The notes beneath the pieces are model-generated. The model had not been told where the DNA came from and ran no database searches. It saw nothing but the letters and a program-made list of their open reading frames with translations. 64,000 nt of DNA from Octopus sinensis (lineage: Eukaryota): positions 201,314,001 to 201,378,000 of the forward strand of contig NC_042998.1 of the NCBI RefSeq assembly GCF_006345805.1. Reading direction: 5' to 3'. Each line of letters begins with the position of its first letter. Within the stretch, counting starts at the first letter, position 1. The position numbers and the translations under genes were made by a program. Below, in pieces: positions 32,477-62,822 of this stretch.

Positions 32477-32669
32477 TAGGTCGCGTAGATATTATAGGCT
32501 TCGAAATACAACTGATACCTCGCTATCCAATCTCCTTTGTTATAGATTCAGTGTAAAATTTCGTGACAGATACAACAAATATATTTTTGAATATTTATTT
32601 ATTTCTACTGTTGTATATTTTAGACTGAGGAATCATGTACATTATTTAGATTAGACGTTTCGGCTAATA

Positions 32670-32768
32670 AGTTAGTTAGTTAGTTAGTTTATTTTTGGCT
32701 CAAAAAGCAAAAAGCAAAAAGCAAGGCCATGTAGGGGACATGGGGTTATCTACAGGGTGGTGTTCATA
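32670..32768 (-). mobile_element. CR1 3' terminus with (TAAC)n tail
   Basis: Homologous to 2852-2940. Confidence 0.85.
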
Positions 32769-32774
32769 AATAAA

Positions 32775-32890
32775 GGGTTCGGTTCGAAATTCCATTAGGA
32801 TATCTGATGAAGGTTGGCGAGTATATCAGCCAAAACGGTGTGAAAATAGCAAACCAGGTGAGGACACTTATCCGTCAATGTAAATATTAT
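32775..32890 (+). mobile_element. Penelope-type terminal repeat with decayed hammerhead (CTGATGA intact, GAAA mutated)
   Basis: CTGATGA at 32804-32810, stem II GGTTG/CAGCC; homologous to 35510-35620. Confidence 0.7.
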
Positions 32891-33210
32891 TTATTGCTAT
32901 CTTCAATTTCATCGTTGAATTCTATGGTTGTAAAAGTATGTTCCGCAGAAAAGTTTGGTTTAGAAATTTGCACTCTTAGAATTTCATGTCTGTAAATCTT
33001 GCTTATCCTCTATAGATTCTTCTGCGCACATTATCTAAATCGAAAACATTTTAAAGAACTACTCTAAATCCTAATGCCGGGATTTCAAAGTTTTTTCTTT
33101 TTGATTATCTGTTACGAAAACATGTTTTCGTCTTTTCAAAAACGAAGTTTGACTATTTTATCACAAAATATGTTGATGGTACCACGATCACCGTCTCTAC
33201 CGCAACCACA

Positions 33211-58600: not shown

Positions 58601-59949
58601 GTGTTGATTCTGTACTTAATATTTTACTTTTTTATGCCGTTTTGCTGATTTCTGCCACAGACAATTGGATTTCCGACAAAATATTTTTCTATATGTGTTC
58701 ACGAGTGTCAGTTAGTTAAAACCAAATAATCAATGAATACATCATCAAATCTTCTCAGTATTTAAAGCTTTACGTCGATTGAACAGAATACATGATATTT
58801 ACTAAGCACATAAATTGTTGGATGTAAAAATGCAGAAGCAGCATTAAAAACATATATTTATCAGTGAGCTTGCTAACAAACTTCAATTGAAGCATATTTC
58901 GATAGTTTTCAATGCCATTTCTTTTCACCCACCTACCTCAGACGGTATACATCGCTGCGTTTTGCAAAACTAAAAGTGAATGAAGCGTATTCCTCAGAGA
59001 TTCTTCACAGATCAAACGGCACGACAAACTATTAAGCCAATCTGCCATGGTGATTGGATACAATATTGATTCAGCACAATAGTCAAGTTTAAAATGAAGA
59101 TACATTTGCAATTGCCTGATTATAATTAAAGAAATATTGAACAATGATATGGGCTTGAAACACATTCAAATATCAATAATTCATTTGATAAATTTCTGAA
59201 CATGAATTTGCAAATGAAAACATAATTAGAAACATTTTGTTTTATTTTACTTTGTTTTTCAGAATTCATTGCTTTAACTTAATGCAAATTTATTGAGCGA
59301 AATTTCACAATGATTATTTTATGCTATATTTTCATATTTATCACTAGTAGCGCACCATTTTGGTTTTAATTGTGGAAAGAATAATTATAGAATTATGAGT
59401 GACGGCAAACAATTAGACAAACCCGAGATGAAAAGAGTTCAAAATTAACCTACCTATTAAGGGACAGAAAATATTAAGACGGATTGAAATTAGCTGTGTT
59501 ACATTTTACTGTTATGTTCTATCGTCTGTTTTATCTGATGATAGAAAGTTTAATGAACTTTGTTCGGTTTAGTGGAAGCTTAGCCGAGCGTTTTCATTTC
59601 AGCTCGATAATTCAATGCGTTTGTTCTCATTTGCTCGCCTCTTAATTACCGTGAAACAAGAGAAATAATGACAAATTAATATTCTAAAACTGCTTAATAT
59701 TATTCTCCGCCTATAAATTTAACTGTTCAAAGAATTTATATGATTGAAACAAAATGTCTTTCAAGTAGTTTAAAAAGATTGAAGGTCAATATGAAATTAG
59801 AGTCAGGTTGATTAAATTATAGGATTTTAGTAATTTTTAATTATACATTAGTCTTTTTTCTAGTTCATATTTTTATTATAATTTCGTATAATAAAAATAT
59901 TTTCATTCGATAACAGAAATAAAAAAAAATTAATGTCTTTCTTGACATG

Positions 59950-61850
59950 TAACATTTATTTGATGACTGACAGGGAAATACAGAGTGGGAATGTGATGAA
60001 TTTCAGTCTTATATAAAAATCAATTGAAGAATGATATATAAATTGAATTTCTTCTTTGTGCTCCACTGATGAGAGTCATGTGTGGGGAAATGAACCGCAT
60101 TCGATTCCTTGTTAAGTGATTAAATTTAGACATTACAAATAACCCCAAAATCAAAATGCTCACTTCAATATTTAGTTCTCTTCCTCCTAAACTTATGCGA
60201 TAGTGTATCATATAAGCAAATCCTTAGATCTATAACATGAATATTCTAAGAGGATTTCTTTTCTCTATTTGTTCTTTGCATTTCTACAAGAATAAGGAAC
60301 GATCCATTTGCTACACTCTAGGTATATCGGTATTTTTGCAAGTAGAAAAGAAAACATCTATATTCACTATAATAGATCAGGTTTGCGAATATCCAATACA
60401 TCAAATCAGCGTTGGCAGAATTTGAATCGGATATATAACTCTGTCTTATATAGTAACAAAGGGAGATATTCAATACATCTATTTTGTCCAGAATATTAGA
60501 TTATCTTCGTGTTTATTGTTGAAATGTTTGTTATGAACCTCACTATTCGGCAGTGGTTGGTGAAAATGGCCAATCTATTTGTTTGCTTTTTTATTATTGA
60601 AGAAAAGGAATAGGCAAAGGATACCCTTCACAAAACAAAAGTTGTTAGGATTAATATAAACCCTCTTCTATTTTATTTTCTTAGGAGATGCAGCTTGTCT
60701 ATATCTATATATCTGCAGTGGCAATCCATTGCTGTGAAAAATCTTAGATATCAGTTCCCGTGCTGTTGTTATAACTGCATTGTTAAATTTTGCTTTATTG
60801 TGTAATGAATTTTCCGATAGTCATACATTTTAAGGTCTGGTTTGGTATTCTGTGTTCACTATAGCATTGCTCAGAGCGCATTTATAAATTATATGCTCAT
60901 TGGCACAAATGCAAAGGCGTTAGACACCAAGCGAAACAATATACATAGGCAGAATATTGATGCAAGTATTTAGAGTTTGGAAGAAGATTTACTGTGCCCA
61001 ACTATAAAATATCAAAATGTCGATAAAATTCTATTCTTATCTATCTCAAAATGAATTGTATCTGCAAAATTGAAATTATTTCAAGTGTTACAATATCTGG
61101 GTGACGCTAATGTACATTACAAGCGTACAACAAAACATATAACCACTGGTCTTTTGTGCATGAACTGACAGAGGATGTATAGTCGATATAATACAGCTGT
61201 TTAGACAACTAAATTATGATATAAGGAGCAATGTCTAGCGATTTTAGTTATAACGTTGGTTGACCACATGTTTTTTTTCACTTGAAAAGCAAGTGAGCCT
61301 TTTACTTTTGACAACGAGGGCAACGTATGCTTTTCCCAGGGCTGCAAGTCTTATAATACGCGTAGGGCTTATATTCTTCGGATGCCTTTGAAACTAATTG
61401 ATCTACATATTCAAATGCATTTGCTTCAAATACTAAAACTTTAGCAAATATCATTAGTCACTACTTTGTCAAAGTAGCATTGGAGTTTGATAACAGCAGA
61501 GACATACGACCACAAGCTACAATATTTTGCACTAAGAAACTAATATTCCTATACATTCCAACAAAGTCAATATAAATTTCATGGCCACAACATTTTCCTC
61601 TGCAGCAGAAATCTATATTGTTACATAAATTGAGCATTCCAGTTCTAATATGAACATCTGGAAGTTTAGTTTTGAACCATGATTTACGAAATGCATCGAA
61701 TCATTAGGCTGTTGGACATTTCTAACGGTATTTGTTTTGAGTCTTTACCACGGAGATTATCATTACCATTCACATTTTTGCGGGTCGACATAATCTAAAT
61801 TTCTACAAAATATTGACCCTGTACCAACATTTGAAACACTTATTATTGTT
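59950..61850 (-). mobile_element. Decayed LINE relic
   Basis: EYQ(AGFR)-like and I.Q-like RT traces at ~60780-60850 on the minus strand. Confidence 0.3.
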
Positions 61851-62638
61851 AATCTGCTGACTTATTAAATATATTCATGTGTATATAAGTGTAGGATATG
61901 ATATGATATAAGAAAAGGAATATAATTGTATATGGATATTCTAAATCGTTTATGTATTACTTCTCTTAGTTGCTGGACTGCAACCATGTTACGTACGGCT
62001 TTGTTGGATTTGTCGCAAAAACCTACATAATTACTTATTTTAAAGTCCCATAATTATTCTCTCGGTCCCTTTTATTCTGAACTGCTATGGCTAGGGGAAC
62101 GTAAATCAACCAGCATCAGTTGTCAAGTTGTGGACAACTACACAAACACAGAGACGCATACGCAAATATAGACACACGCACATATGTATACACTACCTGA
62201 TGTACCCGGTAACTCCCGGAAAAGAGGAGCTTATCCCTTGCTTCCGTTCTCATAGTTGTTTAGCTCATCCATTAACAACAATACAAAGTATGTGTGTGAA
62301 GGTGCGTGGCCGATTGCGTAGGGCGTTGCACTCGCAATCGCTTCGCATTATTTTCGTTGTGTTCATAATTCACAGACGTCATTTCCCTATGACGCAATCC
62401 ATTTGGTTGTAAATGGCTTATCTTGCAACAGAGAAACTTTCCGATCAGGGACTACTCACCTAGCCATTTGGGTGGCATCGCTCAAAGGTTCAAACGATGC
62501 AATGGGCATAGTGACCAGCAGTGCATAACAACCCAGAACCATGGAAGCAAACTTTTTTCAACACATAATCACAACACAAGCATGTAATTATATATATATA
62601 TATATATATATATATATATATATATATATACATATAAA

Positions 62639-62822
62639 GTTAATCCAAACAAGAAAGCACAAAAGAACCCAACAACGCGAGGACGTGGAACAATTATAGT
62701 ATTATTGGACGCTCAGGAAAGACGGAAAGAAGGAGGGTTTAACGTTTCGAGCGGAGCTCTTCGTCGGAAAAGCAAAGATCCCGAGAAGGGAAGACAGGAA
62801 AAAATCGCCAACGGTACACACA
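62639..62822 (-). mobile_element. Penelope-type terminal repeat in (TA)n
   Basis: Second copy of the 49391 family, TA tracts on both sides. Confidence 0.82.
62737..62770 (-). ncRNA. Minimal hammerhead-like motif, U4C core
   Basis: Minus strand TTT-CCGACGA-A-GAGC tcc GCTC-GAAACGTT-AAAC. Confidence 0.62.

Follow-up and report, generated by a model that had tools for sequence, protein, structure and literature searches.

Predicted hammerhead ribozymes with swapped core pairs in Penelope-like retrotransposon stubs of Octopus sinensis

Hammerhead motifs at the locus

A 64-kb stretch of the Octopus sinensis genome (contig NC_042998.1, positions 201,314,001 to 201,378,000; hereafter the window) carries short repeat units, several beside (TA)n, in which a sequence-only reading had seen hammerhead-ribozyme retroelements derived from Penelope. 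The units were said to share one layout (stem I, a 7-nt core, stem II, GAAA, a palindromic stem III, an NUH triplet and stem I') with core positions 3 and 8 covarying. All seven quoted cores are present. Those on the plus strand start where they had been placed, at 32804, 35538, 35730, 39152 and 55589, whereas the two minus-strand numbers turned out to be the low ends of motifs whose cores start at 37169 and 62767. The seven sites represent six repeat families, A–F; a further site at 38655 (minus strand) defines a seventh, G.

We searched the window with a descriptor that fixed the hammerhead layout and left positions 3 and 8 unconstrained. It returned five matches, all five Watson-Crick at 3-8, compared with a mean of 0.47 and a maximum of 2 such matches in 40 local dinucleotide shuffles (mean 1.65, maximum 4 when every match is counted regardless of 3-8). 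The complementarity noted earlier holds when both positions are left free. Three of the seven named copies satisfy the descriptor (35730, 39152 and 62767), and the remaining two matches are an inverted arm of family C at 39121 and the previously overlooked family G site. The other four named copies (32804, 35538, 37169 and 55589) are decayed: G12 and the palindrome are gone from 32804 and 35538, the 37169 copy has four differences from its family majority, and a stem II pair kept in its family is broken at 55589.

The shared layout is intact at the level of the families. Genome searches gave 40-51 matches per query (from 319-1,870 candidates, of which 40 were scored), and majority sequences were built from 20-30 copies each. 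One protein deposited under Octopus vulgaris agrees with genomic copies at 98%. For every family from A to G the majority sequence is a minimal type I hammerhead with the full layout in type I order (stem I, core, stem II, GAAA, NUH, stem I'), retaining the stems and the 3-8 pairing, and all seven families are palindromic at positions 15.2-16.2 or in loop 3. The cores and palindromes are CUGAUGA and ACGU in A, CUGAUGA and ACAUAUGU in B, GUGAACA and AAUAUU in C, UUGAAAA and ACCGGU in D, CCGACGA and ACGU in E, UUGACAA and ACCGGU in F, and UUGAAAA and AAUU in G. An extra purine follows A9 in only four of the seven (A, C, E and G). Pair 10.1-11.1 is G-C in A, B, C, E and G, A-U in D and a U-U mismatch in F, whose majority sequence has a 6-bp stem I. 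No hammerhead appeared among the 150 listed of 179 Rfam covariance-model matches for the window, nor among the 8 matches for 35480-36010, and the predicted folds at 32804, 37169, 55589 and 62767 were not better than those of shuffled sequence; the fold of 35925-35990, in which the motif is absent, was set aside.

Table 1. Units with predicted hammerheads and associated features (positions in the window; pLTR stands for pseudo-long terminal repeat and ORF for open reading frame)
Feature	Position	Strand	Details
Family A pLTR stub, decayed	32781..32890	+	Core CUGAUGA 32804-32810; G12 and U of NUH lost; descriptor failed
Family A pLTR stub, decayed	35489..35651	+	Core 35538-35544; without G12 and palindrome
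Family B stub between (TA)n	35668..35869	+	Hammerhead 35719-35813 intact
Family B hammerhead, detail	Core 35730-35736	+	C3-G8; 54-nt stem II; palindrome ACAUAUGU; triplet GUC
Third family A stub	35864..36006	-	Mutated core 35950-35944; absent from the earlier reading
Inverted pair of tRNA-like segment	36159..36280		Segment sits upstream of family A hammerhead; A-box/B-box likeness by eye
Family F 3' end between (TA)n	37086..37631	-	Hammerhead 37131-37175; U3-A8 core 37169-37163; decayed copy
Family G 3' end	38597..38955	-	Intact hammerhead 38621-38659; U3-A8 core 38655-38649; palindrome AAUU
Family C inverted arm	38996..39129	-	Ends at shorter, tailless 3' end; holds another G3-C8 hammerhead at 39079-39128
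Family C pLTR stub with tail	39130..39336	+	Intact hammerhead 39145-39194; palindrome AAUAUU
Family C hammerhead, detail	Core GUGAACA 39152-39158	+	G3-C8; predicted cut between 39187 and 39188
Family C reverse transcriptase-endonuclease ORF, first 31 codons	39244..39336	+	Ends at tail end
Family E stub	49381..49587	-	Hammerhead core deleted
Family D 3' end before (TA)n	55294..55675	+	Hammerhead 55583-55624; U3-A8 core 55589-55595; ACCGGU; single mismatch within stem II
Family E stub in (TA)n	62629..62821	-	Hammerhead 62736-62772; palindrome ACGU
Family E hammerhead, detail	Core CCGACGA 62767-62761	-	C3-G8 with U4C

Penelope-like origin of the units

Six of the seven families could be traced to reverse transcriptase (RT) or GIY-YIG endonuclease sequence of Penelope-like elements (PLEs) on the strand of the hammerhead, bearing out the proposed Penelope origin. 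Both RT and, at the C terminus, GIY-YIG were found for C, D, E and G, and the endonuclease end only for A and B. In long copies of family C, an upstream frame contains RT motifs and a CxxC linker and finishes in a GIY-YIG, and the hammerhead lies ~90 nt before the start of the RT and GIY-YIG frame and again ~1 kb after its end. The frame that the window stub enters for 31 codons after its pLTR continues for 608 aa at one locus (L409) and 597 aa at another (L413), each with a hammerhead 5' of the start codon. A Neptune-like RT and endonuclease lie upstream of the hammerhead in long copies of family D and ~3 kb upstream in two long copies of family E (two loci), and the family G hammerhead sits downstream of RT and endonuclease sequence. 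Long copies of family B have a Hydra-type GIY-YIG ORF ~560 nt upstream, with the CxxC, E, N, CxH pattern of the Hydra clade; for family A a GIY-YIG end is found upstream at one locus (two arms) and, partially, at a second. At 9 of the 30 loci of family C an inverted arm is present, and the family has two fixed 3' ends, both known marks of Penelope-like insertions (PMC8557442).

Two results count against this origin. The family C protein alone matched no Pfam family and no solved structure in the PDB; among its aligned relatives, 9 of 43 match Pfam RVT_1 and 5 of 43 GIY-YIG. For family F, the sequence 5' of 40 hammerhead sites, some of them retrieved twice, yielded no ORF; this family has two fixed 3' ends, a tail and inversions.

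As six of the seven families lead to PLE sequence, we regard the units as pLTR stubs rather than separate small elements, and it is very probable that they are the 5'-truncated ends of several PLE families. A radiation of short Penelope derivatives, as the sequence-only reading had it, does not fit: each unit is a pLTR followed by the opening codons of an autonomous element, and these elements belong to several distant lineages. Nor are they all unrelated, since 32804 and 35538 belong to one family and families C and G (39152 and 38655) are sister elements. It is improbable that the short units are instead independent non-autonomous elements, resembling retrozymes or short interspersed nuclear elements (SINEs) and copied from stub RNA with PLE proteins. 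Such elements would suit the contrast between the few copies that reach the 5' region of the ORF (19 candidates) and the thousands of stubs, the frequent start of family A copies at a tRNA-like segment and the missing ORF of family F. Family C stubs, however, equal the pLTR of ORF-bearing copies nearly base for base and end inside the ORF, and no head-to-tail, ORF-less arrays of hammerhead stub units were seen in the window.

The tRNA-like segment of family A lies between the endonuclease end and a (TAA)n tract with the hammerhead; many copies start there, and it recurs at L095, L379, L101 and other family A loci. It is possibly a Pol III promoter inside the pLTR or a PLE-driven SINE. Elsewhere in the window we noted a piece of a Neptune-like PLE protein region (63384-63991), a 184-bp unit repeated 3.9 times with 95% identity (50056-50779) and, at ~37800-38400, what looks by eye like a decayed fragment of a mariner-like transposase.

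Covariation of core positions 3 and 8

We collected motif clusters from 307 fetched loci (1.13 Mb) that were picked around family matches and are not a random sample. Among 49 clusters, 19 had a palindromic stem III and 18 of these were Watson-Crick at 3-8; shuffles gave 0.7 palindromic-stem-III matches paired at 3-8. The 18 paired clusters comprise 12 C-G, 5 U-A (two of these rows being one copy), 1 G-C and 0 A-U. The families of the window are C-G in A, B and E, U-A in D, F and G, and G-C in C. Across families, positions 3 and 8 thus stay complementary as C-G, U-A or G-C, the three pairings that had been proposed.

All three occur within a single octopus clade. A protein tree unites families C, G, H and I with a bootstrap of 100 (identity 52-62% among C, G and H, and 41-60% for the fragment of I), and within this clade C is G3-C8, G is U3-A8, and H and I are C3-G8. 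The single family I copy agrees with family C at five bases of stem I, at A7, at the extra G and at the stem II base, and is separated from it by the two-base swap at 3-8. All 11 aligned hammerheads from the octopus clade and its metagenome relatives are paired at 3-8; in this alignment the row m_L162 is misaligned past stem II, so that its stem II cells are invalid, and the three G-C rows are one family.

The G3-C8 pattern of family C has 6,434 matches in the genome, inverted arms being counted separately. By hand count, the first 100 listed comprise 91 G-C, 9 single changes and 0 double changes. Loop II and flanks vary between its subfamilies, and the core, GAAA and palindrome are constant; stem II carries a double change in one older copy. 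Divergence from the majority is 0.7% in a young subfamily, a set enriched by the search, and 6% in the older one. At 79 metagenome loci with related RTs, 0 of 54 loose descriptor matches were G3-C8. Four weak G3-C8 descriptor matches on viral contigs (80 loci of at least 120 stretches) were treated as chance.

G3-C8 has a history as an engineered change: it partly rescues the PLE hammerhead of a lizard (PMC11167929), and in a mutational scan the swap was the sole double mutant in its motif to restore activity (PMC9901934). We found no natural G3-C8 hammerhead in the literature covered, which does not include the largest survey of such motifs, Lunse et al. 2017, nor Przybilski and Hammann 2007 or Weinberg et al. 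2015, where it could be reported. U3-A8 is natural in schistosome PLEs (PMC4209133), and Perreault et al. 2011 (PMC3088659) describe U3-A8, U4C and U10.1-U11.1 among the core variants that occur in nature. G3-C8 is probably an undescribed natural core variant, embedded in a clear covariation series within one clade. Taken together, the window likely holds pLTR stubs of several PLE families, and the hammerhead predicted for each family is minimal type I and complementary at 3-8.

Several related hammerheads were recorded alongside these. Family H (L357-L386) is a young PLE family with open frames of up to 1120 aa, and fragments of it lie in the window at 19689-19824. As in family H, position 9 is C in L159, a related element from a metagenome, and the hammerhead of another related metagenome PLE (L158:4968-5016) has U15.1-A16.1 instead of A-U. 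Further C3-G8 families at L016, L037, L080, L114, L241 and L359 have 6-nt palindromic inserts (CAAUUG, CUCGAG, CGUACG and CACGUG) and a stem II that is often long, as in family B.

Target sites and a possible route to stubs

The units had been described as lying mostly inside (TA)n and as targeting such microsatellites. This is strong in five families, where (TA)n follows the 3' end in 30/30, 14/15, 73/82, 57/81 and 16/27 copies, and weak in two, with 5/20 copies in family A and 9/32 in family G, against a background of 43/752; the copies counted were not randomly drawn.

Of 78 family C copies, 24 stop 20-23 nt before the core (the method under-measures older copies), and in 12 of 16 examined there a G replaces the T of the element. 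We infer that this end is a transcription start with a copied cap. An intron 3' end is an alternative, to which the site bears a likeness by eye: in long copies, compared between 39096-39130 of the window and L015:1480-1500, the family C 5' end is immediately preceded by a branch-point-like, pyrimidine-rich tract whose last two letters are AG. Four presumed RNA runs cover the stub; being assembled contigs, they give neither ends nor strand.

If this end is a transcription start, the element RNA would begin ~22 nt before the core. Reverse transcription would set out from one of two sites in the first codons, following a nick in (TA)n, and on reaching the RNA 5' end would yield thousands of ~210-bp stubs, mostly from uncut RNA. 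The ribozyme would cut slowly, as a double hammerhead between two copies and probably assisted by the element's own protein, and would process tandem transcripts. Selection on this activity would have preserved the 3-8 pair through two-base swaps, and stems I and III would jointly decide which copies pair up.

Stem III palindromes and partner choice

In the established double hammerhead model, the 5' arm of stem I pairs with the 3' arm of the partner (PMC4209133). As stem I is exchanged too, any selectivity between families would arise from stems I and III together. The two hammerheads that family C has in the window are encoded on opposite strands and cannot dimerise within one transcript. 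We paired one real copy per family in 28 cross-family combinations, and 0 of the 28 formed both stems I plus a full stem III. This outcome, and the different palindromes of many families, would be compatible with each stem III palindrome acting as a family-specific code that blocks cross-family dimers, as had been suggested, yet we consider such a code very unlikely. ACGU is common to families A and E, ACCGGU to D and F, and CAAUUG to four clusters; the pairs A/E and D/F, which share a palindrome, fail at stem I in both directions; CG is common to most of the minimal PLE hammerheads in print (PMC4209133 Fig. S3); and divergence of the stems would lead to incompatibility with no selection for a code required. 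Cross-family selectivity is thus predicted from stems I and III in combination, and is explicable by plain divergence.

Evidence for and against cleavage

A number of observations count against the reading as a whole or against strong activity. U4C is present in 73 of the first 100 listed of 8,483 family E matches; A9C is present in 26 of 28 parsed copies of family H, which also has an imperfect palindrome; and the family F majority carries U10.1-U11.1. In these abundant families, such cores are expected to be weak. Computed homodimers come out ahead of the monomer folds only in B, D and F (-10 to -11 kcal/mol); the balance is neutral in C (-0.6 kcal/mol) and unfavourable in A, E, G and H (+1.7 to +6.0 kcal/mol). 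The core of older genomic copies decays as fast as the flank (8/119 vs 112/1821 letters), as is expected of dead copies. G3-C8 arose once here and is one event, not thousands. Finally, most copies retain sequence 5' of the cut site, so insertion does not need cutting.

CpG decay was set aside as the origin of U4 in family E, as just 1 in 100 has a change at the neighbouring C7. Copies that begin where the ribozyme is predicted to cut offer a weak hint of enrichment: the first 100 listed rows reduced by hand to 39 loci, and the start of 8 falls on the cut site or one base ahead of it, against ~3.6 expected if starts were even (P ~0.03), with comparable peaks of 6 at two other positions.

It is possible, if on balance doubtful, that the motifs are relaxed or vestigial hammerheads whose fold serves in the pLTR as a protein-binding or translation element, cutting being unneeded. 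The altered cores of highly amplified families and the making of stubs from uncut RNA would agree with this, as would the lizard element, whose hammerhead mutants still insert in vitro and for which no reads end at the cut site (PMC11167929). It sits poorly with the 3-8 pair, which is specific to the active conformation (PMC3884650) and has survived double swaps, with the continued presence of NUH and the palindrome, and with reports of natural hammerheads that keep function despite U4C or U10.1-U11.1 (PMC3088659). For family C, we lean slightly towards present-day cleavage by its predicted G3-C8 ribozyme. A bolder proposal, that the octopus clade ran the 3-8 swap in nature, with G3-C8 an active undescribed variant and with stems I and III making co-resident families orthogonal dimer ribozymes, is tentative and would more probably fail than hold.

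The maintenance of an active-state pair through double swaps in related elements argues that catalysis was selected, whereas the high amplification of the U4C and A9C families, together with uncut templates, argues that cleavage is dispensable for copying. Both lines of evidence co-occur in one genome, allowing side-by-side comparison. If the bolder proposal is true, the natural series of C-G, U-A, G-C, U4C and A9C would be a probe of the role of cleavage in Penelope transposition. Descriptors locked to CUGANGA overlook thousands of these motifs.

Comparison with known systems

Among the papers listed by literature searches there was none on octopus PLE hammerheads. The octopus units share with the minimal type I hammerheads of metazoan PLEs (Cervera and de la Pena 2014, PMC4209133) the type I order, the extra nucleotide after A9 (in four of the seven families), a helix III that is palindromic, a genome with many families whose copies are mostly solo, pairs on opposite strands and natural U3-A8. 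The rows of Fig. S3 examined in that paper include no G3-C8, U4C or A9C core and no cephalopod; the text sections of Perreault et al. 2011 examined, which exclude Figure 5, likewise do not name G3-C8 or A9C (PMC3088659).

The green anole's Poseidon element (Frangieh et al. 2024, PMC11167929) also has a hammerhead near the ORF start, AT-rich targets, an uncut template and two reverse-transcription start sites in the first codons that produce the tail. Uncut RNA is the main template of this lizard PLE, and cutting is not needed for its insertion in vitro. Its start codon lies inside the hammerhead, whereas that of family C follows it, and G3-C8 is an engineered partial rescue in Poseidon and the natural sequence in family C. 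The endonuclease-containing (EN+) Neptune and Hydra PLEs (Craig et al. 2021, PMC8557442) share a C-terminal GIY-YIG, a (TA)n bias and inverted and partial-tandem insertions, as well as a CxxC-type linker with families C, D, E, G and H and the CxxC/E/N/CxH endonuclease end with family B; the clade labels of the octopus families are assigned by motif. Metazoan non-LTR retrozymes (bioRxiv 10.64898/2026.07.22.740005) have a type I hammerhead and kinship to the pLTR in common with the octopus units, but form ORF-less tandem arrays where the octopus stubs occur singly or inverted and run on into PLE ORFs.

Hammerheads carried by PLEs in pLTR stubs are a known system, and the fresh point is the swapping of a core pair within one clade: in octopus, unlike the systems of PMC4209133, all three 3-8 pairings are found within one element clade.

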